Of a stretch of DNA of 64,000 bases, positions 9,337 through 40,521 are shown piece by piece. The stretch is taken from contig JAYWIR010000028.1 in the NCBI GenBank assembly GCA_036172245.1, positions 1-64,000 of the forward strand. Reading direction: 5' to 3'. The DNA is from Raillietiella orientalis (Eukaryota). Position numbers and translations under genes: made by a program. Every line of letters starts with the position of its first letter. Position 1 is the first letter of the stretch. A model generated the notes under the pieces. It had not been told where the DNA came from, did not search any database, and was given only the letters and a program-made list of their open reading frames with translations.

Positions 9337-9354
9337 TATATATTTATATATATA

Positions 9355-11812: not shown

Positions 11813-11813
11813 T

Positions 11814-11840
11814 AATAAACGCCCCGGCGCACCTGGGTGA
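11814..11840 (+). mobile_element. Isolated 27-nt retroelement 3' terminus
   Basis: AATAAACGCCCCGGCGCACCTGGGTGA matches the termini at 9310, 10373 and 22946 (minus). Confidence 0.75.
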
Positions 11841-12878: not shown

Positions 12879-13870
12879 TTATTCCTTTCCTATTTATAAA
12901 CTCTACATTGCGTGGTACAAGGCCCCACCACGGCCATGGACACCGGACCTGCCGGGACACCGGGACGCAGCCTGGCGTGGCTCTCCTCGGCAGTGAAAGG
13001 GGATGGGGGAAAAAACAAAAAGAAAAATAAAAAAATAAGGAAAACAAAAAGAAGTTGGAGGGCAGGGAAGGGATCACTGGTCATAGGAGGAGGGCCCATT
13101 TTTCGAATAAAACTCTCTAGGTCCTTTTGCATTTGTCCCAGATGGGGCCATCCTTTAGCTGTCCGCATGAAGCGTTGGGCGAATGGGATGACATCCCTCG
13201 CGTTTGGATCCACTCCTTTGTCGCGGGTATCTCTCCAGGCCACCACGATGCCTCGGATTCAGCAGAGTGCTGCCACGGCTGTAGCTGGCTGAAGGGCGTC
13301 TAGCACGAAGAGGAGCCGAAGAACGTCTCTCGGTACTGCCCGTAGGGAGCCCGAGGGTCGTCCCGAACCGTTCCCAAAGGGGTCGGAGGGCAGCACAATC
13401 CACAAGGTGGGGGAGCGATTCCCGCTCCCCGCACCTGTCACACGCATTATCCACAGCTTCCCTTGTCCAGTGGAAGCGGCGTGCGTTGCAGGGTAGACCC
13501 CAGTGCAACAGAAGCAACGCCGACCCTTGCCACCTAAGGGGCAGGATCCTAGATTCTCTTAACACCGGGGACCACTTCAGCTCATCCCTGGGGATGGCGA
13601 GCAGCTCGCCTCATCTCAACAGTCCTCGCGGCTGGACGCTCGGGGTCGTGGCGTCGGCCTGTTCTCCTGTTGTGCAGCCGCTCATCAACTTCTCCCGTCC
13701 CTCGATGCAGCAGGAGACTTGCCACCTTGGCGTCCGGCTGCTGTGAAGTGCCCTATTCAGGAAGAACAGCGATGTAGCAAGGCAGGTCGTCTCTGCCCAC
13801 GCACTCCTAGCGGGACTCTCTAGGAGTTTCCGTAGCGTGCAGCGGGCGTAGAAGCTGCGTCGGAGACTTC
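12879..13870 (-). mobile_element. Non-LTR fragment R8: ORF2 C-terminus and 3' UTR, broken at AATAA
   Basis: LLLLHWGLPCNARRFHWT, CDRCGERESLPHL; close relative of 23164-23950. Confidence 0.85.
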
Positions 13871-13874
13871 TTAA

Positions 13875-14615
13875 CGAACCAGATATCAACAAGCTAATCG
13901 TTGACTTCCAGTTTGTGGGAAGATCGATGTTATCGCGGAGAGTTACTCGCACGGCCATGCGCCCACTAAATGCGCCTCTTGGGCTTACGCCACATCGCGT
14001 AAATCTCCGCGTATTTGTTCAGTTCTGTGCTGATAAATTCTTCGTCCATCCGCACAGTTGTACCAGTTAGGTGGATCACTACTGAGTGATCCACCGTGTG
14101 CGGTAGGAGATTACGTCCATCGAAAGGCACGGGTGTGCAGAGCAGTTTATGCGTGAGCCCTGCATCTCTGCAGATGAGCTCCGCAAAGTGCCCTCCGCTG
14201 CGCACCGAAAGGCACGTGATCCCCTCATCGGAAATGCCCATCTTTTGAATGGCATTTCCGTATTTGCGAGTTGTGATTGCAGCATACAAGTTGCATACCT
14301 TATAAAGCGAGGGTGGATTGTAGCCCTCCTTGATGTAGGCTAAGAGTTCGGCGGCCACGTCGGGAGACGCCGATGCCGCAACCTTGTTGCAAGCCCACGC
14401 CGGAACGGCAAGGGCCCATTTGGTGATGGGGCATGCAACCACATCCACGGGATGGATAGACGTGGGTCTCACGTCTCCTGTCGCAGGTTTTGCGACGTCT
14501 TCCGGCATTTCTGCCTTCCAACGGCCGCCTTCCAACACACACTAACTACCACTTGGCTTCGCTTCCAGGAGCTCCCCAAAAACGCGTGCGACCACCAGGC
14601 CGCCCTAATGAAGCG
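13875..14615 (-). mobile_element. Non-LTR fragment R9: 5' UTR plus N-terminal ORF1
   Basis: EGYNPPSLYKV, SVRSGGHFAELIC and SVVIHLTG match ORF1 at 27532-28200. Confidence 0.8.
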
Positions 14616-14790
14616 TCCTGCCTTATGAAGGCATTCACACCACATCTCGGCAGCGCAGAGGTCGCCTAGCGGAACGCCAAGGTACTTGAGCGAAGAAGTT
14701 CTAGCGGATATGGGGCCTCCCTTACCACCACAGGGTGATTCAGAGGATGGTCCCCTCGTCCCTCCGCTGCACACTTTACGTAGGGGTTCA
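14616..14790 (-). mobile_element. Stub of element R10 (RT thumb), interrupted by R9
   Basis: SSLKYLGVPLGD; the uninterrupted version is at 56830-58658. Confidence 0.75.
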
Positions 14791-14879
14791 AACGAAAGGC
14801 AGGGTGCGGAAAAGCGGGGACATGCACGTGTTCCATGCCGCAGCCTCTTCCCGCAAGAGTAAATTCCAGCAAAAGAAAA

Positions 14880-16500
14880 TGTTCCCGCTCGATCAAATCA
14901 GACTTTGCTTATGGCAAGAAGATGCAGTGGGAACTTTTTCTTTCACTCGATTGCCGCTTGCCAGATTGTGTCCTTTTCCCAACCAGGATGTAACGTGAGC
15001 AATTGATTCAAACTCTTTCAGGGATGTCCCTCTGGAATTCACGTTCACTAAGTGACTTGCTGTCTCTGTAAGGATGGATTTTTCTTTAATACCAAGAATC
15101 TTCCTCATTGTGCTGATACCTCTATCAGCTTCAGCCGAGTTATCAGCAATACCATTCAAAAGGCTTTTGGCCCTAAGAGATACACCATTGGGAATCCTTT
15201 TGCATGAGATATCTCTGCTACTCTCATCTTTATCAATCTGATCAACTGCTTCAGTCGATGTTCTTCCTCAGTCCACAGTGCTGCGCGAACATCACCCGGC
15301 CAGGTCTCAGCACTTGGCAAACGAGAAGAATCCAAAAGTGCATTGCATTTTCTATTTTCATCCTCGAACGGCGTGAGGACTTTCACAACTTTCAATGAAC
15401 TATCGGAAACTTCGCCTCCCGAAAATGCAGGCGATCTTTTTTCTTGTTTAAACCTTCAATGGAATGTTGTGCCTTTAGGCTTCTACAATCTCGCCTGCTT
15501 CTTCTTCATGATTTCCTCCATCAGATTTTTAATCTTCGATTCCATCTATTGTTCGGCGGATTAATCTGTCAGCTGTAATAACCAAAACATCTTCCTGCAA
15601 CGCAGTGAAATTTTCTCTAGAATGTCACTTGGCAAGACTCAATCTCTTGAAAAGCTCCCGTCTCCGAAATGTGAGATCATTCCCACTTCGGCATTTTGAT
15701 CAAAGTGCACAGAGAAAGCCCCAAATTCTTTCCAAGCTCCTTTTGCGGCCCTTACACCACAGGCTGCCCGATGAGTCGCAAATATTCTTCCGACCATCAG
15801 CACTTCAATTCCGAGTTCCTGGGAAATTAAATCCTCTCCGATTTTCCTTCGACGTGTGATAATAAGCCCTCAATTCACGGAGAAAACATCGCGAGAGGAG
15901 GAACTTCTTTTGCAACTCTTCAGTGCATCTATGGACGATGCAACCGCAAGCGATGAGCTCAAGTCTCCCTGCGTTACCGTTCCAGGCAGAAGAATTGTCC
16001 TAAATCTCATAGGCAACCCTGACCACGACCCGGAAGAGACCGAGCGAGGCCTCTGCCGGAAAGGCTGTTCCAGAAATTGATAGAATGTGCTTGCCAACTG
16101 CAGTGTAGGGAATGGAACGAGAAATTCAGGATGATTGCAGGCGGACAAGCAAACCAACAGCAAAAGCAGCATCCCGGTTCCTACCTCGAGGTCTGCAGAG
16201 TATCCGATTGCAGAATGTGCTTGTTCGTCAAGACTCTTTCTGCATCAGCAGATCTAAGGAATCTCTCATCGAATTTTTCGAAAATTCCTGCGGAATATAG
16301 CAAATATCGAAACGTCGTTCCTCATTTGTGTAAGCCTCACTACTGGACACCGCAAGAAGCATCATCTCGGGAATTTCGACTGCTCATCAGGAACAAGAAA
16401 TATGTTTCTCTTAGCAAACGCAATGGAACATCCCTACGCATCCTCATCCTTTGTTCCCCACATGCGAGGAGCACATTTCCTCACCCATCTTAGGAAAACG
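14880..16500 (-). pseudogene. Decayed hAT-superfamily transposase (KIAA1586/ZNF862-like)
   Basis: Fragments ELGIEVLMVGRIFATHRAACGVRAAKGAWKEFGAFSVHF and SAEADRGISTMRKI...TSLKEFESIAHVTSWL resemble, from recall, the TRW region and the SAxxERGFS dimerization motif. Many stops and frameshifts; no TIRs recognised. Confidence 0.65.
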
Positions 16501-18639
16501 GGTGGCGCCGTGGGCTTCACACCGTTCAACCAAAATGAATTCGCTGTTTCCACAGTAAAGACTTCTATCGGAAAGGTGCAGACGGCGGCTGCAACTTAAA
16601 GGACAGATTCAGTAACACGGAGATGAAAATTGCCTCGTGAAACAGACTGTCTCTTTTGCCCCCAGGAGCATCCGTGTGACGTGACGGGAGCACTGTTCGA
16701 GGTCATAAATGCCTTCGTAACGCGTTACGGAGGTGCATCTTTGCAGCTCCGCTGCAAATAGTTTGCATTTCCCTACCGAAGAATCCTTCGCTGCGCAGTG
16801 CACATTCCCCCTCGTCAACACAAACTTCCAACTTTGCTTCATGAGCCCATGTTTCTCGGGATAATCTTCTGGAATATCAAAGATGTTGCTCTGGCATCGG
16901 GTAAACCGACGCAAATGTCATTCTCCACTCTTCCAGCGAGTGAAATATTCCCTAGAAACACGGAAAGAAGCGATTCCGAATAACGCATACTATGCCTATT
17001 AGCATATTTGTGGCACAACGTCAGAGCACTTGGGATAAGTTTTGAACCAATACCTCGGATTGGATAAAAGTCTAGTTTTGGGGATTCTACGAGTTACTAA
17101 TGGGGATATGCTAATGTCCGTAGAAGAACGCCCTTTGGTATATCCCTACCAGCCATATCCATCCAATCCACTCGATCGAGTGGGGTTATGGTTTACTAAA
17201 AGTCAACAAAATGCTGAGAAGCAGTGGCAGAATCATCAATGTACCTGTGGCAACGATGAAGTGACATCCTGCCTTCTGCTCCGCATGCTGCTTGGGAGTT
17301 TGGACTCAGCATTCAAATTGCGCGTTGCACTGGGACGGTGATCGACATTGCAAGTTGCATTTCGCTCTCCGGAAGCAGATGACTGGTCTTCCGTTTCCAT
17401 GTTTCAGATGGACCCTTAGAGCTTGCATTAGTAAATTTGAAGACACAGAGCCCCTCGAATCTTCACATGAAAGGAAAAGAATAGAGAGGACAAGAAGATG
17501 GAAGATACTTTGCCCTTCATCCGTTTCTCTCGCTCGTTCATCTTCGACGTAATCAATCAACTTTCGAATAGTCAAAGGGTACTGTGGAGTAACCACTGCG
17601 ACCGTCGTTGCTGGCCGCAAATGGGTCAACGGTAGCAGGCCGTCAGCGTGGTTGTTCTGCGATTTTCCTGCTCTGCTTCGACCTCGGCATTCCCTGAGGG
17701 GCAACCCGTGACACACATCCTTCCAAACCTCCCCTGACGATGCTTCCAAACATGAAGGAGACCTTTTTTTCACACTGTAAAGTTGCGCTCTGTGGTGCAG
17801 CACTCCAAACGGACAGATAACAAGACGAATCATAAATGCACGGGTAAAGAAAAGCCGAATGCAATGCGCCGAACGATCAGTTCTGGTGAGAGAAAAGAAG
17901 GCAGATGGACATTGCCTTCGCTCGCCCAAGTCTCATTACTTCCAACGTCTTCTGCTACCGGAGACCTTCCCTCTCAGGCACCGTCAGCCACTGGACAGAG
18001 CGGATTCGCATGAGGTGATGATGAAACGGCGACATTCCTTTCCTGAGAGGTCAACCTGTACCGTTCACCGCCGAGGAGGCGTCTTCACATTGCGTCCTAG
18101 GGCGGATCCCTCCGTTCTCCAAAGCACGCCGGAGCAACATTGGACCAGAAAGGGCGCTCTGGTGACATGCTGATGCATTCGTCCACGTCGACGATGGAAG
18201 AAATGAAACGATAGCATTGTATGTTTGAGGAAGCATTTTAATTCCAAGAGTAAATAAGTACTTTTATTTCTGTTTCGATTCAAAGTGTAAGGATTTAATT
18301 CCTCTCCAACAACGTCAGAGGTCCATTTTTCATCTTTTCAGGAAGCGATGGAACGAGTAGGACAGGCATGGGGCGAAGCGAATCCGTCGCGCTTCGCGTG
18401 GGGCCCGGACATACGCAGGAATTGGGCGGCGTAGAGCCCACACAATATGGCATGGGAACGGTGCACTTGCGCGTAGTGGGCATTGCAGGGAGAAACCAAA
18501 CTTTTATTGCTATTACTTTATTCGAACACCTTTCAGGAATTGCGTGCCGTGTACTGCCAGGATTTTCATCTGCATTTTTGTTGAGACGCTTTCTTTCGAA
18601 GAACACGAAAGATGCCACCGCACTTTCGAAATCGCCTTC

Positions 18640-19500
18640 ATCATGGTATCCCTAGAAACGCGCCATAAAGAGAAACGTAAATAAAAGTGGCAAAATTTTT
18701 GCAGGAGCTGTTAGAAGAGGACCAGTCCGTGTATGCCACCAAAAAAGATTTGAAGCACCATCCAGTCCCTGGATCCCGGAGACCGTGCGAGCATGAGCCC
18801 AGAACAACGAAGCGATCCCGGAGATGCAGCAGCGACAACCGCACTTCTTCTACAGCATCCGATGGCAGCAAGCACTCGTGGTTTGAAAGATGCTTCCCAG
18901 CCACGAGGCTGCCTTTCCGCAGGGAGCACATGGGCAGAATCGAGCTGCACAAATGGGAGGTCAGAAGCGGAATCGCTCTTCGGAAGAAGGAACTAGGTGT
19001 TTGGACCACGAGCCAGTTCACGGACGTTGCGACCCCATGGCCTTTAAAGAAAAAAATATCATTGCGCTAAGGTGAAATGCGGGGAATCCTACAGGAAGTC
19101 CGCGAGAGTTCCCCAGCGCTGAACAACAACCGTTCCTTCCCCCTGAATTAGAACGAGACGGCCATTTTGGCATTACATTAGGGTCTCTCCTGAAACGCCC
19201 GCCTCTACCACGAAACCCTGAGGTCTGTGCACCCCGAATTTTGCTGTTCGGATAAGATGATCCCACATCCCGCACTTGTTTGTAGACCGTGTTGCCCCCC
19301 GGCTTCTGCGGCTGCGTTACTGAAGGGCCATGGGTGCACCAACCGACATCCCAGGGATGTAGAGGACGCCCTGAAGCGGACAGTGATCCTTTCTCTAATA
19401 CTCCCAAGGCTTCGCATATACGCTATTTTCAAATCTTGTTTGCCACTGTTTCCACTGCTGCCGAGGCGGAACTCACCCGTCTGCGCACCCTTTTAGTCTG
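18640..19500 (+). mobile_element. Degenerate non-LTR ORF2 C-terminus (R11); inverted copy at ~50330-51200
   Basis: WEVRSGIALRKKELGVWTTSQFTDVATP matches WEVSCLIRGRRKPLKAWTTRELSDAATP of R4; also LALH*GLS*NARLYH. Confidence 0.7.
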
Positions 19501-20543
19501 CAGGTTCCGAACATTTTCGGCTGTTGGAGGGCCTCTAAGTTTCTGCTGCAATACACCCTACCGGGTGTTGGCCCACGAGCACCTCCTTCAGCCCGTGATC
19601 GCACCCATGATCTTGAATGCAAATAAGTGCGTTGCTGACAGTTGCGCTTTTGGAGAATTTTCGTGCACTCACTGTTTGGTGATTTGTTCAGATGTGCGCA
19701 AAACATAGGAAAACATCCCAAACAGCAGCCACCGCCATGACCTTGAATCGCTTGGGAGAGTTTTCCCGAAAGTCTCTCTCCAATCTCTGAATTCCACGTC
19801 CGAAGTGAAAAATTGCACCAGTATTTAAATAACCACACCCAGTGTTTGCGTTGATGCTGTGCTGTGGCTTCCGCAAGTGACCCTTTGCGCAATCCCTGCG
19901 CTGTTTGCATATCCTTCAGTCTCGGGGCAACGGACGGTGGTCGCAACTTTTTCATCCTTACTTCCTCCATTTTGTATTTTTTCCCTTTGTGTGTTCTTCG
20001 AAACTTGTTCCCAGACCGAAATCACGTGTGCCACGTCGTGCGTCAATGCATGCCTGACAACCAGTCGACGTGGTTTCGCCCCCTGCCTGGTTGTACCTTG
20101 CACTTCTGGCAGGACTGCGTTTCCCCATCCCGCCGTTGGCGCTCGATTCCGTGGATGGCGCATCCCCCACGGCCGTGAATGCCGGTCGAAGCAGCCGAGA
20201 AGCGCCGAATGGCACTACTTCCGGCCCTTGAGTAGAATCTTTCAACCCTTTTTCTTTCGATATTTGCGTGCGTGATGCTTCTGCGAGGACGTTTGGTCCG
20301 CTGGCATTTTCCCGATCACAATTCGGGCGGATGGCACTTCCAACCGTCCGTTGAGCAGAGTTTCTGAATCGACGAATTCATCGCAGATTCCAAGAAACTG
20401 ATGAGAGTTCGCATTTTGAGAATTCCATTTGTTTCATTTGAAAGTCGTTTTTTTTTTTTTTTTCATTTTAAAAATTTCTTAACCTTTCATCCACTTTTCT
20501 TTCTTGTCACGAATTTCCAGGTAGTTCTAATAGAGGGGACAAA

Positions 20544-20730
20544 ATGGCGTACCTCCAGGCAATTTCTCCTCTTCTGATTGTGTTTGTTTCTATCATTTCG
20601 GAATTTTCATGCTATCACAGAGGTAACCGTCGCACTTTCATCGGTGATCCAAAGACAGCTTCGCAGGATGACCGATCTAACGAAATCAGAGAACAAGAAG
20701 CACAGTACAAAAGTGACGGACCATATCCAG
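20544..20730 (+). CDS. Kunitz gene copy 1, first coding exon (signal peptide plus spacer)
   Basis: MAYLQAISPLLIVFVSIISEFSC hydrophobic leader; upstream pyrimidine tract and TTTCCAG acceptor ending at 20520; donor CAG|GTAACT after 187 nt (phase 1). An alternative phase-1 donor follows 20622. Confidence 0.7.
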
Positions 20731-22902
20731 GTAACTGTTAAGCTCCTTTCCTCGTAAAATCTTGCCACGATGAAATAAACGTGCGAATTCGCAACTAATG
20801 TGCCCTGTAAGCGCGACCCTCATAAGGCTGGATGACTTTGACCTCTGCACCTTGATAGTATCTCCTCCCTTCTTTCAACCCTCGGTCAGAATATCTTCCA
20901 TCCACCTAACGTTCGAAAAGAGTTGATGCTGCTGTAGCCATGGAAACAACTGCGAGGAGAGCTGGCAGCGTACTCGGCTCAGAGACATTTGAGCGACCAG
21001 TTTCCCTTCAATTCTTCCTTGTCCTCCGGCAACACGGCCAGGAAGATTTGCGCTGGGAGGCATTACGATGCTGCTTTCACTCCAACGGGATTCCTTCCTG
21101 TCATTTCCACGAGTTCCTGAATGAACACCACAACGGTTCCACTCGCATTCACGTGTTCAGTGTTGGAAAGCGCGATGACCGCAGCATGGAGGCAGTACGA
21201 ACAAACGGCTCCTCCTTCGTTTGGTGTTTCTGAAAGCGGTGCCAGTCTGCTCCTCCCATGTGCGTGTGCTTCTTGTGTGACCGGTTCTCTGCCGCCGTCC
21301 ACGCGTTCCCAGGAGCTCCTTTCCGCAGAAGGGAACGTTCAGTCAAACATCACGGAATGCTGCTGCGAATGTTTTCCTCTTTTGCTCTTGTTGCAAGCGA
21401 GCCCATCAAAAGGCATTCGGACTTGTTTTCATCGAGCGTGCCACGTGGCTCTCGTCCTCGTGCTCAACCACGAAACAGATCAGCAACTATACTTGCACCA
21501 CGCTAGACATCTCAAGGCGTGAATCTCACAGACGGAGATTCGGGAGTGTTGGATTCAATCCAGTCACACACAGAGATGCATTTTTGATGCATCTCCTGTT
21601 TGACCCTTCGACGGCGAGAGCAGGACGCACTCGTGCGGATATGAGCACTCGAGGATCGGGAAATTCACATGAGGTTGTTGTCTTCGGTATCGTTCTCTCC
21701 AGCGGCGAAATTCGCTTTACAAAACGAAATTGAGTGGGCGGAGAAAAGTCCGCGTCCTCTTCGAACCCGGCTCCATCCAGCGTCCGAAGAAATTTCTCTA
21801 CGCAGCATCCAAGCACAGGAAGTGAGGTCAAGGAACCCCCTTGCCTTATCTCGCCGCGCCATCCTTACGGCTGCGCTTTGGTTGACCCGGGGACATCGGA
21901 TGCTCCAAATCCCAATGCAGCCCCATCCCATCGAGTGCACGATCGCAGCGACATGCTCACGGCACCAGCATGCGTGGGCGGCCTGCTGCGCGCCTCGCAC
22001 TCGCCGCCCCTTTCCGGCTGCTGGTTCCTTTCGGGCAAATTCCTGAATCTTCCTGAACTTCGAGAAGGAGACGGTGACGGGTCCCGTGATCCGTTTCCTG
22101 GCCCGTAGGCGATCGCGGGGCTTGCGGAAGGGTCCGGCGAGTTTCGCGTCAAAGTGATGAGCGCTGTGCAACGAAGCCCTTGGCAGGAGCACCGTGCATT
22201 CTCGGCTTGTCGAACGGTGCCCCGGACGGCAGCGAAGTTCTTCGCCGACAGCCACACGCACCATTTGCCCTACCGAAACGGCTACCTGGAGGGGCAACAA
22301 CGGGCACGCGTTTTACCCCCGCCTCTCTATTTTAAGTTCTGACCGAGGTTCGTCCTTTCCCGAGTGCCCGGAGGCCTCGCAAGGGAAAGAGGCACAACCA
22401 TCCCCATAGCAAACTGTGATTCTATGGAGTGAGGAGGTCCAAACCCGAACACCCATCCGGCTCCGAACCAACGCTGCCGATGCGAGTGGCCTCTTCCAAC
22501 GCCCATTTCGATTCTGCGGAGAACCATGATCTGATTTATCGCCCGCTGGAACGGCACTTCCAATGACGAGTCTGCAGCCGCCTTGAGCTCAGACTTATGG
22601 CACTTCGTCCCCCATCCCCGATGCGGATCTCAGCTCGCGTGCGCATCGATCAGCGAAAAATCTCGCTTCCTTCCCAATTTCTTTCGGAAGAGGTCTTCCA
22701 AAAATGCAGGATGGTGGATGCCAGGATTCGAAGGAAACATCAGCATCCAGACCGTCTTTCCAGAGCAGCCTCTAAGGCTAGATGGTCTTGGTGTTCTTTC
22801 TCGCCATCACCACCACTTCCGCAGGGCGTCCTTGAACAAGCGTCGTCTACAACAACGCTGCAGTTCTCCTAATGATCGCGGTCCTCGCTGACCACAGTGC
22901 CC

Positions 22903-22917
22903 GCGTGCCACCTTCGT
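22903..22917 (+). repeat. Target-site duplication, left copy (GCGTGCCACCTTCGT)
   Basis: Identical 15-mer at 28483-28497; single copy at the empty sites ~60276-60290 and ~46909-46923 (reverse). Confidence 0.95.
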
Positions 22918-23163
22918 TGCTCACTGGTTGCGCCGGGGCATTTATTCTTTCGAATAAAATTAGCGTTGGTGGCTGACCTGGTGGTCCAAATACGCACTGG
23001 TACACAAAATTAAGCCTGCCGGTACACCGGTTCGTATTCCGGTACTGTCCACCACGACAGCAGAGGGGCCAAGGGCAAAACAAGAAATTAAAGAAAAAAA
23101 AAGAAATATATAAAATCAAGATCTGGGGGGCACGGGAAGGGATCACAGTCTGATGTGGGGCCG

Positions 23164-26100
23164 TTACATCCTTTGCAGGATGCCGGCAAGCTGTTTTTGG
23201 ATGGTTGAATCCAGATGGGTCCATCCTGTCGCCGCCCGAATAAATTCGGCTGCGCTCTGGACGGCACCCTTATCGAGAGGTCCTCCCGTTGCTTTGCTCC
23301 ATGCAGCGACGATCCCGCGAAAGCAGCACAAAGCTGCTAACGCGGCCGAGGGCCGAAGGGCGTCGCAAACGAAGAGGGATCTGATTGCGTCTCTGGGGTT
23401 GCCACAGGGGTTACCGATTGCCGCGGCAAAACGGTTCCAAAGGGGCCGAAGAGCCACACAATCCAAAAGGAGGTGAGTGAGGGACTCCCGTTCTCCACAC
23501 CTCGCACAATTAGGGCTCACCGCTCCCCAGGTCCAATGGTGTCGGCGGGCGTTGCAGGGGAGTCCCCAATGCAACATCAATAGCGCCGACTCCTGCCATT
23601 TTAAGGGGAGGGTGCAGGTGTTCATCAGCACCGGGCGCCACTTTAATTGTTCCCGCGGAACATTAAGCAGTTCGCCCCAGCGCAAAAGTCCAATAGGGGT
23701 GGTAGTCCGGGCGGCGGTATCGCAGAGAATTCCCGTTTTCCATTCCCCGTTCTTTTTCTCCGTACCGGAGATTTTGATGTAAACATCCCATTTCGCAGCA
23801 GTGTTGCCGTTTGAATGCTCCGCGAGCGGAAACAGCATTGCAGCAAGGGGGATTTTTCTTGCCCACGCTGGTTTTTGGGGGTTCTCCAGGACCTCCCGGA
23901 GCGTTAGGCGGTCATTACGGGCGAAAAATTGTCTCTGCCCTTCTTGGGTGCGTTGCTGTTTGCTTCTTGCCCACGTCTGAATTGTTTCCTGCAGCCATGC
24001 AGGTCCGTTAACGGGGCGACAGCAGAGGCATCCTGCGTTCTTCCTCATCAGGTCAGCCACTCTCCGTAGCTACAACCCGCAGTGACCGACTTGGCGGCGC
24101 CGACGGAGCGCAAGGAAGGATGACAGTCCCACCTTGCCTGTAGCCTGCACGACGAGGAGACGTGCGGGCTCGAACCAACTGCTATTCCAATATTTCGCCA
24201 CTAGGGCGAGTAACCGAAACTGGAGCTAGAGCTCCAGCCGCTCTAGCGTCAGGAGGCCGAGACTGCCGTCCCGACGCAGAGCGCTCAAGTCCTCAAGCCG
24301 GACTCAGGCCCTCCCATTACCCCACATGGCAATCCTTAGGAGGTCCTTCGTCTGCTTTTAAGTTTCTGTGGTGAGGGGACAAACAAAAAGCAGGGAACGG
24401 AGGAGGGGCGCCGCGAATGCGTTCCACACCGCAGCCCGTTACGGCAGTAAAAACCTTCGGCCTTGGAACGGGCCGATCGCCGTCTCTACCTTTTGAAGGC
24501 AGCTGGACCACGCATCCGAAGGGAGATAATCACCCATCGGTACACCGAGGTACTTGAAGTACCGTACCGTGGGGATCCGCAAACAGACCCAGTCCGGCTG
24601 CCCTGCCCACGCCGCACCGATTGGCATGACGGACGACTTCGCCCTGTTCACCTCAAGCCCGGTTCCCCGACGTAGCAGGTCGAAGAACTCCTCGACCGCC
24701 GCAGCCGGGGTGGACATAGGGAGCAGCAGCAGTAGGTCGTCCGCATATGCTGACACCGCGGGCGTACCGGGATAGTCGCGCGGCAGGTGCGCTAGAGTTT
24801 CCCTGTACGCTCTCAGTACCAACTCGAAGTAGGTACTGAAGAGCAAGGGACTCAGGCTGTCTCCCTGTCGTATGCCGCGTCGCATTGGTACGCCGTGCAC
24901 GGTGTGTCCACTGAAAAAGATCTGGATGAGCGCGTCGCGCCAGCAGGATCGCAGGTAGGTCAGCAAAGAGACCGGGAAGCCCAAGCGTTCCAGGAGCTCC
25001 AGGAGGAGCCTCTGGTCGACACAGTCGAATGCTTTATGCAAATCGACTGCGACTGCGAGGGCTCCCTCCCCCCCCTCAACCATCCCGTTTCCTAGCGGCG
25101 GACATTCCGGAAGTCCGGTTGCCCATCCTGACCCTTTCCTGTTGGAGCGCGAAAAAGGTGCAGGCGAGGAACAGGTTAGTATCCATGCTCCGTTCGGGAA
25201 CAGCATATGTCTGCTCCGGGCTAATGAAGCTTTCCGCTGACCGCCCCAGGCGTTCAGCCCACAATTTCGCCAGCAACTTGGGGTCCGCGTTGATCACGGT
25301 AATCGGCCGCCAGTTGCTCATGTTCCGAAGGTCTCCTCCCTTAGGGAGGAGACGCACCTTTGCCGAACGAAACAAGGCGAGGACGTCGCCCGTTTCGCGG
25401 ATCAGCAAGGTGAGTTTCTTCACCAGAGGAATGAGCTCTGCCGCGAAACATTAAAAAAATTCCGCTGGCAGGCCGTCCTCCCCTTGAGCCTTCCGCCTCT
25501 TGAGCTTTCCGATGGCCGAGATGATCTCGCCCATCGTGAAAGGCTCGTCGAGGATCTTTCTATCTTCCTCCCCGATCGCCGGAGCGCCTTCCGGAAGAAG
25601 GAGTCGCGAGACATCCCGTTCCGGTGGAGCGCGCGCGTACAGGGAGGAGTAGAATTTTTTTAATAAGCCTTTTACCTGGGCGGGGGCCGAGTGCTCCGAA
25701 CCCTGGTCGTCCAGTAAGCTGGCCGACCCGGATTGCCACGCCTGCCTCTCGACTTCCGCACGGTATTCGGCTAGCCTGCGTACGTCTGGTGTTCGCGCGT
25801 AACATCGAGATAGTAAATACCATCTCTGGTTACGCACGCTTTCACCAAACCCGGCAGACAGGAGGTTCATAGGGAACTCGTCGCAAAACTCCCGGACCGA
25901 GCGCTTGAAGCGGTCCCAGTCCTGAAGCGTCTGCAAGCTGAAACATCGTATGAATCCGCAGAGATGCTCCGCGGCTTCCGGAAGTTTCAGCCAGTCCCCC
26001 GGTAAGCGCCACGCAGATGACGGCGGACCCCTATCGCGTGGGCGCACCTCGAGTACGATCCGGTCATGGTCCGACAGTTCCGACGGTAACTTGCCGCGCC

Positions 26101-26731
26101 TGCCCACGCGTGAGCATAGGTGCTGGTCAAGAAACACGTGATCTATGCTGTCGGCCATTTCCGGATCTCCGGCGAACAAGTTGCGCGTGTGCATCTCTGC
26201 GCCCAGCTCGTTCACGCGGTCCCGAAGTGTGTCGGACGCACCTGACAGCAGGCGCAGGTTAAAGTCACCTGCGATTAGGTGCGCTTTGCGCACTTCCGCT
26301 TCGTCCAGATATTCGCGCCTCAGGGTAAGGAAGAAATCTCTCCTTGCCTTTGCCCTTAGCGCGTCGCTGCCGCTTGGGGCGTACACGTTGGTAATGACCA
26401 GATCGATGGAGTCGGACCACCTGATGGTCAACTGCATGACGCGACCGGCACTATCGAACCGTACGCCCTTTGCCACAGCCTCGACAGCTGGATGAAGCAG
26501 GAACGCAACACCGCAAGATTTAACGGTGCCGCAACGCCACAGCAGCCGTCCACCCGAGATACGCTCGATTTCTGTTGCTTGATCTGCGGAAATCACGTGG
26601 ATCTCTTGCAGCAGCACCAGGTCGAACGATGCCAGGGTGGAGGCCACGTCTCGTCTCTTGCCGTCGTCGCTTAGCCCGTTGACGTTCCAACAGGCAATTC
26701 GCAGACGGCGGCAAGAGGCGATTCCTGGCAT
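23164..26731 (-). pseudogene. ORF2 (APE-RT-CCHC) of the full-length element, disrupted
   Basis: Motifs IACWNVNGL, AGDFN, IDHVF, LSDH, WRPITVINADPK, DLHKAFDCV, GIRQGDSLSPLLF, AYADD, KYLG and CARCGERESLTHLLLDC. In-frame stop at 25451; frameshifts near 25080 and 24060-24450. Confidence 0.93.
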
Positions 26732-28370
26732 TAAGGCTGGGAACGTGGCAATGCAGCACCTGTCAACGGACAGGTGGGAGGGACGAGTAAGGAGACCGCG
26801 GCCATCTCAGGCACTTGAAGCACCTGTGGCACAGACTCTCCCCTTTCCCTCCCTCCGGGGTCGCAGCGTGGGGTTACCTCGCGAGGAGTGTCCCCGGAGT
26901 TCCCCACTTTGATCGCACGCTCGCTTCCCTCGATTACCTCTCCCTTTTCCACGGACGGGATAATTTTGCGGGTAGCCTTCTTCGTTCTACTGTCCTTCAA
27001 GCGGGTGGCCGCGATGCCGCAGGCTGTGTTTTCCGCCTCTGCGTCAGAGTTCGGAATCTCCAAGTTCTTGATCGAGGTCGGACGCCTTAAGGCCTTTTTC
27101 GAGGATTTAAGGGGACGCTGCAAGGACGCAGCGAGCTCCTCCGCCGCTCGCTCAAAGGCGACGTCGTCGAGCATGCGTTCGACGACGGACGCCACCGCCG
27201 GGTCGATATCCTCCGGCATTAATTTGCCGGAGGGCTAAAAGTCGGCAGCGACGAGTGCAATTTTGCCGCTCTGTTCGACCGCAGGAATGCGCTTGATGAC
27301 GACAGAGCAGCGTTTGATCTTTTCGCGGCGCGGCAAATTCTCGCTGCGTTTCGCGACATTTTTTTTTGGTTCCTTGAGGCTTTTCTGCCTCTTGGATTTT
27401 ACTACCTGCCATCCAGGTTCCTGGCCGTTCTCCTCGACCTTGTCCGAGTTTTCCAAGATCTCGGAGCTGACCTTCACCTGGGGCACGATAGTTGTTTTTC
27501 TAGCGGCGGCTCTCTCTCGGGTTGCCTGAACTCATCGTTTTCTCGCCGCGCGCTTCTTCGCATTCCGTGAAGACGCGACGCGGACTTCATTTTGCGGGCA
27601 CACTGGAAGAGTGTTCCCTGGCTGCTTGCATTGCTTGCACTGCAAGTGGGGGCACCTTTTTTTCAGGTGACCTGAAGTGCTGCAATGCCCGCAGAAATGC
27701 GGCTTACCGACATACCAGATGTCAACGGGTTCGCCGTTGACCTCCAGCTTGTTTGGTAGGGAGCAACCCTCGCGGACCGTGATGCGCGCGAAAGCCATAT
27801 CGCAATTCAGCAGATCGTACTCCCAAAACGGAGTCGGCTTTTTCCACAACGCGTGGACGGTTCCAAATTTAATTAATTCCTTTCGGACAGCCTCTTTGGC
27901 CATCCGGAAGGGGATTCCGAGGAGGTGGATCACGATAGATCCATCCTCCGTGATGGGGAGGAGCCGACGATTCCCTAAAGGAACAGGTGTACGGAGCAGA
28001 CGCTGGGCAAGACTTGCTTCTTTGCAAATCACATCAACGTACTGTCCACCACTCCTGATGGTCATCGCCAAGAGCTCCTCCTGGGGTACTTTGAGGGAGT
28101 GCATCGCTTTCGAGAAAGCGCGTGCACTCTCAAAGGAGTAGAGGTTGCCTACCTTGTAGAGTAGAGGGAGATTGTACCCCTTCTCCAGGTAGGCTTTTAA
28201 CTAAGCCGCAGCTGCTTCTGTTGGCGCCGCAGCCACGGAACTCCAGCTTCTCCCTAGCGGATGAGTCACTTCTGTGGGGGCGGTTGCCCCCACATCCATT
28301 GATTCAGGAGGCGACATAGACGTCTCCCCCTCCTTAACATTGGTGGTGGTCCCAGGCATTGCTGCCTAGC
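26731..28370 (-). pseudogene. ORF1 of the full-length element, frameshifted
   Basis: CGHCSTSGHLKKRC and CKQCKQPGNTLPVC; split into ORF-track pieces 28104-27532, 27486-27235 and 27219-26731. Confidence 0.85.
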
Positions 28371-28450
28371 CACCAGCGAATCCACTGGAACACCAAGAAA
28401 AAAAAAACAAAAAAATAAAACTACAAACGCTCACGAGCGAAACAAAAACC

Positions 28451-28482
28451 CGTCCGCTCTCGCTCGTGGACTGGGACGATTT
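28451..28482 (-). promoter_or_regulatory. Putative internal Pol II promoter with DPE
   Basis: GGACG lies at +28 to +32 counted from the TSD-defined first base (28482), the canonical DPE position. Confidence 0.6.
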
Positions 28483-28497
28483 GCGTGCCACCTTCGT
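28483..28497 (+). repeat. Target-site duplication, right copy
   Basis: GCGTGCCACCTTCGT, identical to 22903-22917. Confidence 0.95.
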
Positions 28498-30625
28498 GGA
28501 CCCCCGTCCTGTGACTTTCTGCTCGCGACGTCCGCTTCCCGCTACCGAACCTCCCGTTTCCCCCCCCGTCGCCAGTCTCGGAAAGGGCGCGCGTGACTCC
28601 CAACGGGTGAGGCGTGTGATCCAACGCCACGCGAGGTAAGGAGGCATTCTTAGCCTAGCGAAAAGGGCGGCTTCTCGAAAGACCTCACCACTCGCGTTGC
28701 CTAAGGCATGGTTCAAGGCTAGAAGGAGAGACGCCGCCGCACGTGCCGCTCCGCGCAGGGTTGCCTCCCTACGTTGCCATCTGTTCTTCCAACGGCTCCC
28801 ATGGTACGCTATTGCGATCCGAGGTTGATGGCGGAAGGTCGAAGATTCCCGGAGGTGAAGAGTGGGCGATGCTTCGGTGTAGTCGACATCGCTCCCACTG
28901 CCGCACCATGGCATCGCCGCTTATTCGGGAAGAGAACGTCTGAGCTTTCAACGGAATCCCGAGAGAAACGCCATGCTCTCCCTCCTCCTTCCATCGATTG
29001 CCCCTTGTTTTGTCCGCCGAAGGGGGCTCTTCTTGCTTGCGGGAGAGGAAGCCGCAACGAAGCGGACTTTCTAACGGTCTTCTCCCACCAATCGGCGTTT
29101 CCTCCTTGCCTCTTTCGCACCGCGTGCGCGTCCACGGAACGACTCTCCATGCGAGACTCCCTACGTGGAGCAGAAGGTGGAGCGTAAGATTTTCCGCTCG
29201 GGCGCCGGAAACTACACGAGGGAGAAACTGCTCAACAGGAGAGCATCCGTCCATCCGTCTTGACTTGCGTGGATCCACGTCTCCTAGGCAGCTGTGTTCG
29301 GTAAAAAGGTGGACAGCCGGCGCTTCCCTGGAAAGGTCGCTTCCGCGTGCCCAGCTGACGTATCCCGGGAAGATTTCCCATACAGAGCAGCATCGGTCTG
29401 GATCGCAGGGTCTGTGACAGTTCTCGAGACAGAAGCGGATCGTCGAACTTCCAGGCAGCGTGGCTCGTCTGGAGGGGGAAGGTCACCCGATCCCATGACT
29501 GCGCGTGCAAGGCCAGGAAGCTGCCAAGGGGATGGAGGAGGAGAAACAGCCTCATCTCCCTGGAATGAACCCGTAAGCGAGGAACACAGGTTTACAAGCA
29601 AAGTTGCGGGGCTGGCCTTCCGTTCCGGAGGTGGTGTACGTTGTCTGCGAAACCGCCCGTACGCTTTCGCTGTGTTTGGCATCTCCGTAGGAGTGTCAAG
29701 AGAAAAGGGGCAAAGGGGTCATGCACTGAATGCGTCTACCGCGGAACCCGGCTTCGGGCATCCTTCGGGGATTCTACCTGGTTTCCAATTTTCGAGCGCA
29801 TCACGTAAGTGCAAGGAATGCTGGAAGACAGTACTCTCCTCGACGCGTAGGCCAGTGCCTCCAACTCCTCGTTTTTACGTCCCTTCTCCTCGGTATATCC
29901 CATCCCTCTCTCTCACTTTGCAGAGGAGTGCGTGTTCACTCCCTGGGACGCTCTCAGATCCAGACAGTGAGCACCAGGTGAGGCGACTCTTCCATCTCTA
30001 CCGCCATTCCCCAAGCAGAAATAGCCAGCAGCTGTTCCTCAGGAAGGTTCGCGAAATAAACCTCATGCAGTTCTGCTCTTCCTTCTCACCCTCTCCTCTC
30101 CGTCAAGACCGGGCAAAAGGGGAGCACGTGGAAGATGAAAAGTGTGCCTGGGGTTCAACGCTGCTCGCTTGGCAGCATCCTCTGCGCTCGACAAAATCCG
30201 CGTTTCTTTCCATCTTCCGTTCCAACTTTTTCACTGCTCATCCTTCACCCAGGTCAGCAAACGCGTAGGCAGGAAGGGAGGAAAATCCGTTCATCCCAAG
30301 ACCTTCACGCTCCTCCCCCTCAGGATATGACCCTTCCGAGTTGCAAGCGCTGCCACCCGGCGCTTCCTCGGTCCCCTTGCAAGTGATGGCAGTCCGACTT
30401 CCTCCTCAAGCACCTGCTTCCTGGTCCGGGGACTAGCTGGAAGCAGTGGATAGGAACAGGATGGGATAGGAAGAGTAGCGCAGAAGAAATCGATCATCTC
30501 CCCATTTCCCCTTCCTTCCTGCAACCGTCCTTATCCACCTCCCCCCATCTCTCCGCTTAGCGCTATCGAATGGTTGAGCTGAATGAGAGAACTGCAACTT
30601 CACATTTGCTTCATTTTCTGCTCAG

Positions 30626-30810
30626 TTCCAGCGCGGTGCAACGAACCGATGGTGGTTGGAAAATGCAGAGGAAGTTTTCCAAGGTGGTACTACGACCCTG
30701 AATCAAAAAGCTGCAAACATTTCGTATATGGTGGATGTGATGGAAATAACAACAACTTTTCGAGCCATATTCTATGCACGCTGACCTGCGTGGTACCAAA
30801 GGACTTTTGA
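30626..30810 (+). CDS. Kunitz gene copy 1, terminal exon: Kunitz/BPTI domain (P1 Arg)
   Basis: CNEPMVVGKCRGSFPRWYYDPESKSCKHFVYGGCDGNNNNFSSHILCTLTC has six Cys and the FxYGGCxGNxNNF signature; acceptor ttttctgctcAG, phase 1; downstream AATAAA motifs near 30994 and 31059. Confidence 0.92.
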
Positions 30811-31149
30811 AATTACGATGTAACGCTTTATTTTCTTTCGAAAGAATAATATACAATCGGTACGGTGCAATGCAGATTTACCAACAGTTTTTCTTTTCTC
30901 CTTTGCGCACTAAGATCCAGAAGGTCCAAAAAAGACATTAGAAAAATTCCCACCATTGCAACATCTTACCAGAACGTTAGAACACGTTTCATCAATAAAC
31001 CATCTATCACTCTTTCTGTTCTTCAAGAGGATTTTCCAAGGGCATTTTATTCCTAGAGAATAAAAAATTGGCGTTTGAGTGGGAACCTTCCCCTCAAAAG
31101 ACAATAAGTTTTTATAACAATTTCTGTTGATTGCCCTTTTTTCTGTTGT

Positions 31150-32220
31150 TTGAGCTCATCGCTTGCGGTTGCATCGTCCATAGATGCACTGAAGAGTTGC
31201 AAAAGAAGTTCCTCCTCTCGCGATGTTTTCTCCGTGAATTGAGGGCTTATTATCACACGTCGAAGGAAAATCGGAGAGGATTTAATTTCCCAGGAACTCG
31301 GAATTGAAGTGCTGATGGTCGGAAGAATATTTGCGACTCATCGGGCAGCCTGTGGTGTAAGGGCTGCAAAAGGAGCTTGGAAAGAATTTGGGGCTTTCTC
31401 TGTGCACTTTGATCAAAATGCCGAAGTGGGAATGATCTCACATTTCGGAGACGGGAGCTTTTCAAGAGATTGAGTCTTGCCAAGTGACATTCTAGAGAAA
31501 ATTTCACTGCGTTGCAGGAAGATGTTTTGGTTATTACAGCTGACAGATTAATCCGCCGAACAATAGATGGAATCGAAGATTGAAAATCTGATGGAGGAAA
31601 TCATGAAGAAGAAGCAGGCGAGATTGTAGAAGCCTAAAGGCACAACATTCCATTGAAGGTTTAAACAAGAAAAAAGATCGCCTGCATTTTCGGGAGGCGA
31701 AGTTTCCGATAGTTCATTGAAAGTTGTGAAAGTCCTCACGCCGTTCGAGGATGAAAATAGAAAATGCAATGCACTTTTGGATTCTTCTCGTTTGCCAAGT
31801 GCTGAGACCTGGCCGGGTGATGTTCGCGCAGCACTGTGGACTGAGGAAGAACATCGACTGAAGCAGTTGATCAGATTGATAAAGATGAGAGTAGCAGAGA
31901 TATCTCATGCAAAAGGATTCCCAATGGTGTATCTCTTAGGGCCAAAAGCCTTTTGAATGGTATTGCTGATAACTCGGCTGAAGCTGATAGAGGTATCAGC
32001 ACAATGAGGAAGATTCTTGGTATTAAAGAAAAATCCATCCTTACAGAGACAGCAAGTCACTTAGTGAACGTGAATTCCAGAGGGACATCCCTGAAAGAGT
32101 TTGAATCAATTGCTCACGTTACATCCTGGTTGGGAAAAGGACACAATCTGGCAAGCGGCAATCGGGTGAAAGAAAAAGTTCCCACTGCATCTTCTTGCCA
32201 TAAGCAAAGTCTGATTTGAT
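31150..32220 (+). pseudogene. hAT transposase fossil, inverted duplicate of 14890-15962
   Basis: Near-identical reverse complement with the same ORF-track fragments. Confidence 0.65.
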
Positions 32221-32329
32221 CGAGCGGGAACATTTTCTTTTGCTGGAATTTACTCTTGCGGGAAGAGGCTGCGGCGTGGAACACGTGCATGTCCCCGCTT
32301 TTCGGCACCCTGCCTTTCGTTTGAACCCC

Positions 32330-33180
32330 TACGTAAAGTGTGCAGCGGAGGGACGAGGGGACCATCCTCTGAATCACCCTGTGGTGCTAAGGGAGGCCCC
32401 ATATCCGCTAGAACTTCTTCGCTCAAGTACCTTCGCGTTCCGCTAGGCGACCTCGGCGCTGCCGAGGCGTGGTCGGACTGCCTTCATGAGGCAGAGTTGG
32501 CCGTCAGCCCGTTCATTAACGGCAAGTTTACCTTGCCGGAACGGGTGGCTATTTGGAACACCTTGGTGGCCTCCCTTTTCCGACCCCTGTTTTTTTCCTT
32601 TTTTCTGTCTTTCGCCCCCCTACGCGGCGAAAGAGCGGGCAAAATACCTGCTAGGAACGCTCTCTGGTGTTTGGGGCGATCCAGGGTCCGCCTAAAAGAC
32701 TTGTCGTCTCCACGTCGGGATGCCGGACTTGGCATCCTGACGATGGAGCGGATAGGACTGCAAGTGCAGTTCCGGATGCTGGCACTGTGAGCAGAGCTTT
32801 GGACATGCCCCCTGTGTGCCCCTGAGCGCATTCTCTTACAGAGGTGTGCTGGCAGTGAAGGACTTCTTTCCATGGTGCCTTCCAGGCGCCACAGAAAACA
32901 GGGGTTTTGGCTATCCTTTGAGAGCACTCGCATCATTGCTGGAAGCCAATTTGTGGGTTTCCTGCCGCCCAACGAACTTCAGCTCTTAATGGCAGGAATC
33001 TGTTGATTCCTGGGCTGCATTTCTGGAAATGAGTCTTGGTGATCTTTGCCCACTGCGCCAATTCCAACCTTGGTCACTCCAAGATGTGATACAGGACGAT
33101 GTGAAGATTTCCTTCCTAGCCGCCACGTCCCTCGTCCAGGCGATTTTTGCGCTCACGGCTAGAGAAGACAGTAGCCAGCC
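32330..33180 (+). mobile_element. R10 copy, 3'-truncated
   Basis: SSLKYLRVPLGD...ERVAIWNTLV; matches 56830-57678. Confidence 0.8.
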
Positions 33181-34329
33181 GGCTACTGTTTTCTCTGGAT
33201 ACGTGTGTCAACGGCGGCGTTTGCGCGGTGCCGAGGCCTTTGCCGCGGGCGGGAAACGGCACGAAACTTCGGTGCCCTCGGCCCCTGTCGCTCTTCCAGC
33301 ACACGTGCTGTGCAAAGAAATCCAGCTGAGGATGGCTTCCGACTCCGGAAATTTCCTATTAGTTTCCCGAAAAATGACTGCGAGCGACTCAGCATCCAGT
33401 ACAGGAATCCGGTCTTGGAAACTTTGGCGATTCTCAGCAAACTTTGTGTGCAGTGTTGAAGAAGAAATGAAGAAATGAAACACCCACGTGGAGAAAGAGT
33501 GAAACGGAAGCACGGACAGTAGATGATGAGGTGTCATCTGTTTCGGAAGGAATACACGAATCCATACAGGAAACGGAAGCTGATGCAGAACATTTCACTG
33601 CGACAGAGCACGCGCTCGGAGGATAACCTCCCATCTTTCCATCGCTCTGTAGGACTTTTGCACGTCCTCGGGCAGAACGGAAGATAAACGGGAAATCGAA
33701 TCCTTCTAAGATAGTGAGCTCTCTAATGTACACCTTGTAAGCCGTGCAGGAATCCTCGTGCTGCTTGTTGGGTGGGACGTTCGATTGCTTTCTCGGGAGC
33801 AGATATCCAAATTTTCAGATGTTGACAGGAGCGTAAGAGAAGAGGCCCTGGATGAAGATGTGGTCCGACAGGCTTCAGAAGTTGATTTTTACATACATCC
33901 CGGAATGATCTTTTTTCCGGTGTCCCTTCGACTTGTTGCGGAAGCAGTCCTCCATGCACCTGCCAGTGTCTCAGTCCGGGTGCAGAACGCACGAACCAAA
34001 TTCTTCGGATGGACATTCCGCATCGGTAAAACCTCAGCATAAAGCGTGGCTTTCGTGTCTGAGCCACTCCGAGAAGTCGTATAGCGATGATCCCATCGAT
34101 CCACATATTTGTCAGGGGTCATTTTTCACCTTATCCTCCTGCCGCGCGTGGGGTCGGTGGCAGACGAATCTCCGCCTTTAGATACGCTGTTCACGAAAGG
34201 CACCAACCTCCAAGCGAGTGTGGAGAAAGCGCCCTTGCCTGGAGGGCGAGGCCTCTCGACACCAGTGCTTCCTTTTCGAACTGACCGAATGGAGAAGGAT
34301 TTTCGGCGGCGAGGCTCGTCGTGGGTTCC

Positions 34330-39862: not shown

Positions 39863-40445
39863 TATCGGGGGAATCAAAATGTGTGACCATTATGCAACTT
39901 TTCCTCTAGGGGTAATGCAAAATTTTTGTAAGGGAGTGATTTTGAAAGGAAGAGTTGTGATTGATGATGTAATGGAAGAATGGAACAATTTGAGAATGAT
40001 ACTGATAATGTGCGCAATTTCCATATCTTCTTCCCTATCAGATTCCATCAGTTTCACACATAAAATGCAGGTCATCTTCCGAAAATGCGTGTATTTTGCT
40101 TTATTTTGCATTTTGCATTTTCTTTATTTAGTTGCATATAGCATCTATGTTTTGTGGAAAGGTTACCAGAGTGTGCATTTCGTTAATGTGGCTTGTAGAT
40201 TTAGAAGTTGATTGGATGGTGTGGTGTGGCAATCCCATGTTGCTTTTGAACAAGTTCCAGCAGTTTCTGTTTGCATGTTTCAACTTTTAGGATGCATGTT
40301 CCCCCCATTGAATGTGGGTCTCCTTTTGTGTAACGTACGATATATTTTGCATAAAATATTGGTACATAAGGTGTTGCTGTATGAATTGTTGTTTGCATGT
40401 TGCAATTGTGAAAGTTTGTCTTTGAGAAACCGTTTTGTGTTTCAG

Positions 40446-40521
40446 TCTATTGTTTCATGACGAAGATGAAGATCTCACACAGAAGGACTCTTTGCAATCT
40501 GAGAATGTTTCCGAAACCAAG
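40446..40521 (+). CDS. Candidate internal exon of an unidentified host gene or pseudogene
   Basis: tgtttcAG acceptor, LLFHDEDEDLTQKDSLQSENVSETK, AAG|GTTAG donor, within AT-rich intron-like DNA. Confidence 0.35.

Follow-up and report, generated by a model that had tools for sequence, protein, structure and literature searches.

Mammalian L1 is the textbook case of relaxed template choice guided by poly(A). If an element with L1-like proteins leaves copies that carry no poly(A) tail, by what means would it find the end of its template? The question is raised by a near full-length non-LTR retrotransposon in the stretch of DNA analysed here (64 kb; hereafter the window). An earlier reading of the letters, the sequence-only reading, had proposed that L1/Tx1-like elements in this stretch end in a conserved AATAAA-hairpin-GTGA terminus instead of poly(A), and that the lineage recognises a structured 3' end and primes at or near the cleavage site, more as stringent LINEs do. 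The matter is of some consequence, as template choice decides what a LINE mobilises, itself only or SINEs and cellular mRNAs too. According to published accounts, human L1 starts its cDNA within the poly(A) tail, where a T-rich nick is annealed (PMC3649969), and human ORF2p needs ∼20 A's, an upstream stem-loop helping to define the start and ∼15 A's lying single-stranded between this anchoring stem-loop and the active site (PMC10830416). Stringent LINEs are described as being recognised through 3' stem-loops (PMC4176376, PMC3747384), and most LINEs are said to have tail-less ends with 3' hairpins (PMC4176376). Papers that define L1 count the poly(A) tail as part of the element (PMC5203782). 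Which of the two modes of recognition, strict or relaxed, came first in the L1 group is presented as still debated (PMC3747384).

We first give the features that fix the boundaries of the element, with coordinates in the window and the target-site duplication abbreviated to TSD.

22918-28482, minus strand: near full-length non-LTR retrotransposon, 5565 bp, with APE and RT (the bounded copy)
22918-22946, minus strand: 3' terminus of the bounded copy, AATAAA + TGCCCCGGCGCAACCAGTGA + GCA, lying against the TSD
22903-22917, minus strand: 3' copy of the 15-bp TSD, ACGAAGGTGGCACGC in the sense of the element
28483-28497, minus strand: 5' copy of the 15-bp TSD, ACGAAGGTGGCACGC
46908-46922, plus strand: pre-insertion (empty) site in an uninterrupted second host-repeat copy
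60276-60290, minus strand: another empty site, in the third host-repeat copy, which is partial

Read on the minus strand, the 29 bases of 22918-22946 are AATAAATGCCCCGGCGCAACCAGTGAGCA. The repeat table, self-BLAST and direct reading all showed the host repeat to be split at 22917/28483 and unbroken at 46908-46922 and 60276-60290. The TSD is exact (15/15) and ACGAAGGTGGCACGC occurs a single time at each of the two empty sites. Since the bases flanking the TSD differ between filled and empty sites on both sides, the insertion comprises exactly 22918-28482 and the terminal motif is element sequence. The sequence-only reading had likewise assigned the motif to the element and not to the target, an assignment borne out by the exact TSD, the two empty sites, five differing flanks and empty Rfam and tRNA scans. 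The host repeat is ∼6.7 kb long and present in three copies of 97-99% identity (18802-22917 plus 28483-31137; 44266-51023, reverse; 58884-60893), the last two of which run unbroken across the insertion point. It has an old L1-like C-terminal fragment near one end (18924-19400), and Pfam gave no match for its scanned ORFs of at least 110 aa.

The bounded copy ends in ...GTGAGCA, that is, with one A before the TSD, which agrees at this single TSD-bounded copy (n=1) with the absence of poly(A) proposed earlier. In the L1 superfamily TSDs arise from staggered nicks and vary in length; here, for one insertion, the TSD is 15 bp and is matched by two empty sites. The nick on the primed strand of the bounded copy reads 5'-CCTTCGT/G. 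As this is not T-rich, annealing to a poly(A) tract was unavailable for the bounded copy.

The proteins of the bounded element look L1-type by domain architecture and best solved match, as judged from their translations. ORF1 carries a CX2CX4HX4C knuckle, and ORF2 is ordered as APE endonuclease, RT and a candidate C-terminal Cys-His motif. The endonuclease matches Pfam Exo_endo_phos (E 6.3e-14 in the bounded copy, 7.1e-17 in the copy at 10366-11811) and the RT of the bounded copy matches RVT_1 (E 6.1e-17). At the ORF2 C-terminus zf-RVT scored 23.6 bits, under the 27.5 cut-off (E 8.3e-5); CX2CX7HX4C is readable in the translation there, among the nearest RT relatives, the 30 longest include 20 that match zf-RVT at E≤1e-3, and a solved-structure search with the C-terminal 301 aa of ORF2 gave no match. 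The best solved match of the endonuclease is human L1 ORF2p (8uw3, E 1.3e-15), with a second stretch in the linker region. R1-clade endonucleases, of which R1Bm and TRAS1 have solved structures, are absent among the 15 solved-structure matches of the bounded element's endonuclease. The RT matches R2Bm (2e-13) and human L1 ORF2p (1e-11) about equally, so that the RT alone does not separate the clades. The label 'L1/Tx1' given by the sequence-only reading thus holds for domain architecture and best solved match, and at that level only.

Compared with P0011, an uninterrupted 619-aa entry of the protein library that is 77% identical to it, the bounded copy is decayed, with six in-frame stops and one frameshift. 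Reassigned stop codons were considered and rejected in favour of decay, because all three stop codons occur among the in-frame stops (opposite E, T, R, Q, E and Q of P0011) and P0011 itself is uninterrupted. Over 23878-25717 the bounded copy has many nonsense codons and few frameshifts, and the ORF2 frame of the second family described below (1364-5488) has five internal stops (TAG, TAG, TAA, TAA, TGA) and zero frameshifts over 4.1 kb. Near-identical repeats around the bounded copy differ by 1.4% (167 of 11817 aligned bases), a divergence that may be taken as a rough upper bound on its age and that predicts fewer than one substitution within its final 29 nt. The bounded copy, with its six stops and frameshift, was perhaps mobilised in trans, or its true age may exceed that indicated by its flanks.

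Further 3' ends in the window belong either to the family of the bounded copy (family A) or to a second family.

7637-9336, plus strand: 5'-truncated copy with the end of the RT, the C-terminal region and the 3' UTR
9310-9336, plus strand: terminus of the 7637-9336 copy, AATAAATGCCCCGGCAAATCCGGGTGA, then a (TA)n stretch
9355-10399, plus strand: 5'-truncated copy, terminus 10373-10399, AATAAATGCCCCGGCATATCCGGGTGA
11814-11840, plus strand: terminus of a short 3' fragment, AATAAACGCCCCGGCGCACCTGGGTGA
55384-58658, plus strand: copy of a diverged subfamily, terminus 58632-58658, AATAAACGTCCCGGCTTGACCGGGTAA
5593-5619, plus strand: second-family terminus, AATAAATTTACCCCACCCCTCGTGGGA, CCCAC/GTGGG stem; element about 41-5619
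39838-39862, plus strand: second-family terminus, AATAAATTTACCCCACCCTTGGTGA, CACC/GGTG stem; 5'-truncated copy 38691-39862

A tblastn search with the element's own ORFs found many fragments of the same superfamily on both strands of the window. The 15-mer AATAAATGCCCCGGC is present three times exactly, once with one mismatch and once with two (9310, 10373, 22932 on the minus strand, 11814 and 58632), whereas shuffles at ≤3 mismatches gave a mean of 1.56 matches and reached five in 3 of 100 cases. A covariance model built from the five family-A ends detected no sixth in the 64 kb on both strands with filters off. The related ends that the sequence-only reading had listed at 9310, 10373, 11814 and 58632 were recovered by the 15-mer and the covariance model alike, and those of the second family at 5593 and 39838 are as it described them. 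The C-terminal region of the 55384-58658 copy is 32% identical to that of the bounded copy, and the second family shares 32-48% identity with family A over aligned RT segments.

AATAAA lies 19-23 nt before the end in 7/7 ends (five of family A, two of the second family), and the conserved motif as a whole takes up 25-30 bases. The A runs at or across these ends measure 2, 1, 3, 3, 3, 1 and 1, so the longest is three, the limit of about three A's per end had been put correctly, and the 3' poly(A) tail characteristic of the L1 superfamily is missing from all seven. The TSD proves the position of one of the seven; the other six were placed by loss of similarity, with a precision of ∼2 nt, and a TSD search at these six gave no convincing 8-mer match. 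We mapped the junctions of two nested copies using homologous copies as stand-in empty sites; for the flank of the second-family end at 5619 no such homologous copy turned up. The terminus at 10399 is followed by CA(A) and then by antisense APE-linker sequence of an older copy, and that at 11840 by 1-3 bases and then by antisense APE sequence of another older copy. The mapped junctions read GTGA + CA(A) before (A)ACGTCGG in one nested copy, GTGA + T or TAA before (AA)ACAACCG in the second, and GTGA + GCA before ACGAAGG in the bounded copy. A few extra bases, 0-2 of them A, therefore separate GTGA from the target at the three mapped junctions, and the nested junctions, 1-3 bases past GTGA, are consistent with the GCA of the bounded copy. 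The phrase 'instead of poly(A)' accordingly stands as regards the missing tail, but the contrast is less sharp than the phrase implies: two junctions include 1-3 further bases, 0-2 of them A's, and the exactly three extra bases of the bounded copy (GCA, one A) may be the first bases of a tail.

These junctions bear on the idea that the copies are ordinary poly(A)-tailed L1 insertions whose tails have since disappeared through erosion, rearrangement or later insertions that landed exactly at the tail. Such losses could be pictured in a region as heavily nested as this one, where 4/5 family-A ends have no identifiable TSD. However, the last base of the bounded copy stands directly against an intact 15-bp TSD, which the two empty sites argue is not a coincidence of the host repeat, and 7/7 ends stop within a few bases of the same motif, unlike what independent losses would produce. 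We regard tail loss as nearly refuted.

All copies were drawn from one repeat-dense 64-kb window. As they are related, their recurrence says little, and the informative part is the pattern of conservation. Four family-A copies were compared in pairs, and identity over the last 27 nt is 70-96% in 6/6 pairs; in the same six pairs the next 73 nt upstream are 56-65% identical and the remaining UTR 55-66%, and the coding part of the four copies is 56-71% identical. The last 27 nt are thus more alike than the upstream 3' UTR, so constraint acts on the terminus. AATAAA, G and CCCGGC are invariant in 5/5 family-A ends; the loop is variable, and the 3' arm varies in the bounded copy. In the second family the terminal block is nearly identical (77% mean column identity overall in the alignment) and the AT-rich stretch just upstream of it is poorly conserved. 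The two families have the layout in common but not the stem sequence (CCCGG/CCGGG versus CCCAC/GTGGG). The comparison supports the view that, within the 3' region, conservation peaks at the terminus in two deeply diverged families, and a 3' terminal sequence kept across diverged subfamilies is a trait of stringent-type LINEs.

The family-A 3' UTRs all open with the stop context CCAGTGATCC, followed by a 40-60-nt pyrimidine tract, a GC-rich part, an AT-rich part and AATAAA; the stretches in question are 23060-23130, 9100-9160, 10160-10230, 13010-13080 (reverse) and 58360-58480. Degenerate ends of two older copies, at 12860-12900 (reverse) and 19615-19650, read ATAAATAGG...AATAACCCTCCC... and AAATAAGTGCG..., and sit at the expected distance from the stop codons of those copies.

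A five-bp CCCGG/CCGGG stem is present in 4/5 family-A ends, in keeping with the earlier description of a stem in most ends that is weak in the full-length copy. The four folds range from −8.1 to −9.9 kcal/mol and are equalled by 21-28 of 200 shuffles; the second-family folds are −7.8 (7 of 200 shuffles as good) and −3.7 kcal/mol (11 of 200). The bounded copy reaches −2.5 kcal/mol, and 161 of 200 shuffles fold as well. In RNAalifold runs on the last ∼190 nt of four UTRs, the terminal hairpin was the only consensus structure, with a covariation term of +0.5. Over the five ends the named stem has 92% paired cells, which shuffles equal, and 0/5 stem pairs are altered on both sides, a count from five family-A sequences that has low power. 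The compensatory substitutions associated with stringent-type LINEs were therefore not seen in this small sample. The hairpin is plausible as a structure and well placed, but the proposal that a structured 3' end is recognised drew no clear support: the check for stem covariation returned 0/5 pairs and a term of +0.5 (again from five sequences, at low power), the single folds are not clearly ahead of those of shuffles, and the one copy proven by a TSD is almost stemless. With less than one change expected in the last 29 nt at 1.4% divergence, the weak stem was probably already present when the bounded copy inserted. Decay of CpG (CCGG to CCAG) was considered as the cause of the weak stem and dropped for lack of particular support, because CpG observed/expected is ∼1 and CpG transitions make up only 18 of the 167 substitutions between the near-identical repeats.

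Taken from the DNA copies, the following model has in our judgement an even chance of being right: these are L1-type elements whose own poly(A) signal sets the 3' boundary and whose conserved terminal block is read by the element's protein. Where two old families both keep an invariant AATAAA at the canonical distance from the end, the simplest reading is that it serves as a poly(A) signal. If so, AAUAAA would cause the transcript to be cut 19-23 nt further on, at ...GUGA(N)(N)A, and the end of the RNA would become the end of the DNA copy. The priming at or near the cleavage site that the sequence-only reading proposed is likewise deduced from DNA copies. In target-primed reverse transcription the cDNA would begin at the RNA end or within the first 1-2 A's of any tail, and annealing of nicked DNA inside a long poly(A) tract, as in mammalian L1, would not be used. 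The predicted cDNA start lies 3-6 nt past the hairpin and the nick is not T-rich, so the enzyme must find the template end by other means. The terminal 25-27 nt (AAUAAA, C-rich arm, variable loop, G-rich arm and GUGA) would be the part of the template read for the start; the element's protein would bind this block, the hairpin perhaps mattering rather than its primary sequence, and the lineage would be a 'stringent' LINE in the sense that a protein reads its terminal block.

We put forward only tentatively, as something we rather doubt, that two old L1-superfamily families abandoned poly(A)-dependent priming altogether and that the hairpin between poly(A) signal and cleavage site anchors ORF2p. 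The ORF2p anchor would then sit 3-6 nt from the cDNA start, versus ∼15 nt of single-stranded poly(A) for human ORF2p, and the enzyme would copy from the last templated base at non-T-rich nicks. Such a lineage, if real, would be a natural counterpart to mammalian L1 and would bear on the origin or loss of the surface with which ORF2p binds poly(A).

The main rival to stringent recognition holds that the block is a 3'-end-formation signal only, consisting of AAUAAA and its cleavage-site context. The block would be retained because at any site of insertion the element has to supply its own transcript end, and the reverse transcriptase would not specifically recognise it. The RNA would have a very short tail or none, or the enzyme would start at the physical 3' end of any RNA, and in the absence of template selection processed pseudogenes and copies with mixed ends are predicted. 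The absence of covariation in the stem is what this explanation leads one to expect, as are a bounded copy with no good stem and the fact that AATAAA, with the end at the usual 19-23 nt, is the sole piece invariant in 7/7 ends. It does not account for conservation beyond AATAAA, since a cleavage site alone needs neither the G and CCCGGC that are invariant in 5/5 ends nor the terminal GTGA. We consider end formation alone to be unlikely, if a serious contender.

Alternatively, the transcript may read through into the flank, or its end may be made by hairpin processing resembling that of histone mRNA, with cDNA synthesis initiating internally at a position fixed by the 3' UTR. Initiation at such a position is known from the rDNA-specific R1/R2-type elements, whose precise, tail-less 3' junctions with a few extra bases are set by the 3' UTR. 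In having a tail-less, precise 3' junction with a few extra bases the present elements resemble them; R1/R2-type elements differ in being site-specific, and the endonuclease matches listed above include none of the R1 clade. An end 3-6 nt past the hairpin and 1-3 variable bases after GTGA would follow naturally from internal initiation, but the invariant AATAAA that both diverged families carry at the canonical distance is most simply explained as a poly(A) signal in use, and the flanks have no sequence in common that could pair with read-through RNA. These points make read-through or processing distinctly improbable.

Could the terminal bases instead be copied from, or pair with, a fixed target, as in a target-specific element of Tx1 or R1 type? 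Tx1-clade elements are reported often to prefer other transposons as targets (PMC4494074), two of the three mapped targets are members of the element's own family in antisense orientation, and NAAAC follows GTGA in three flanks. Against this, the five family-A flanks differ and share nothing beyond a possible (A)AC, the host repeat is occupied in 1/3 copies, and Rfam at gathering thresholds and ARAGORN found no RNA family or tRNA at the sites or elsewhere in the window, so that the motif, as had been asked of it, matches no host multicopy target gene in these scans. We think target specificity very improbable. A common target in the C-terminal coding region of the element, suggested by CGAGGACCG after two ends, was also considered and was dropped because BLAST at the DNA and protein levels revealed no homology. 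At 10373-11811 and 11814-12054, twice running, a plus-strand 3' terminus adjoins a minus-strand 5' part (antisense endonuclease) of the same family; these pairs may reflect random nesting among densely clustered copies, a preference for this target or the duplication of one composite.

Returning to the proposed L1-type element with its own poly(A) signal and a terminal block read by protein, we compared it with known systems. Mammalian L1, a relaxed system, has in common with the present elements ORF1 and an ORF2 with APE, RT and, as a candidate here, the Cys motif, the best solved endonuclease and linker match, variable-length TSDs, 5' truncation and AATAAA near the 3' end; it starts in the poly(A) tail at T-rich nicks, whereas the present elements have 0-2 A's and the nick CCTTCGT/G. 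The stringent L2-clade LINEs UnaL2 and ZfL2-1/-2 are described as having a 3' stem-loop read by the ORF2 protein independently of poly(A) (PMC4176376, PMC3747384). Their 3' ends carry short tandem repeats (such as TGTAA) that serve in slippage, whereas the present elements have no terminal repeat, and they belong to a different clade with experimentally proven recognition, whereas the present elements are known from DNA copies alone. The Tx1 clade (Tx1L, Keno, Kibi, Koshi and Tx1-Mar) is portrayed as L1-related, with RRM/CCHC-type ORF1 variants and elements that often sit in other transposons (PMC4494074, PMC5203782); it is defined by RT phylogeny and strong target preference, whereas no common target was seen here.

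The closest parallel lies in the L1-clade LINEs of monocots reported by Ohshima, which, like the present elements, are L1-type with a conserved 3' end containing a hairpin (PMC3747384). In that account a conserved hairpin in the last ∼45 nt was taken as stringent-type recognition within the L1 clade, compensatory changes were reported and poly(A) repeats were kept at the end (PMC3747384); the present elements differ in showing no compensatory change, in having a 5-bp stem between AATAAA and the end, and in having no tail. Strict recognition inside the L1 clade has thus already been proposed for a monocot lineage, as set out in PMC3747384. A tail-less 3' end is unusual for L1-type elements and usual for many other LINE groups, and does not amount to a new principle. 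Our literature search found no L1-like element without poly(A), although it missed the Tx1L descriptions and Repbase, so that absence is unproven. A tail-less L1-type lineage with a precise end and a conserved block would be a second, independent case of strict recognition in the L1 group. Strict recognition further predicts few processed pseudogenes in the host and short non-autonomous elements with the same 27-nt tail, and the covariance model found no further copy of the ends in the window. In addition, the 27-nt block would be a compact element for binding or retrotransposition assays.

Searches of other collections for the terminus or its proteins gave the following. A degenerate motif scan of metagenome contigs returned seven loci, all of one unrelated sequence with no upstream similarity, which amounts to a single hit, about the number that a hand estimate gave for chance; the same kind of scan gave 0 matches in viral contigs, and a protein-based locus search with the C-terminal 301 aa found none in genome and viral contigs. 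The DNA sequencing run X1 has a word share of 0.10, and over 8800-28700, 317 of its 499 records are <90% alike, mostly distant relatives. A 284-base contig of X1 spans 10364-10633 and with it the point at which the 10399 terminus meets the antisense endonuclease fragment, with 36 and 234 letters on the two sides and 39 of 270 letters being other ones. As this contig bridges the junction, the nested junction also exists, in diverged form, in a relative or a paralogous copy.

The neighbourhood has further features of its own. Three copies with 98-99% identity, at 14618-16225 (reverse), 31150-33183 and 55382-57681, hold the 5' and central portion of the subfamily whose end lies at 58658; the copy at 31150 has a 263-nt 5' truncation and is joined to the host repeat by 12 T-rich filler bases (31138-31149). 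A pure A35 run lies at 63807-63841. The stretches 40001-44000 and 62001-64000 are AT-rich, with 37-40% GC versus 55-61% in the retroelements, and CpG observed/expected is 0.5 in 40001-44000, the stretch measured, versus ∼1 in the elements.
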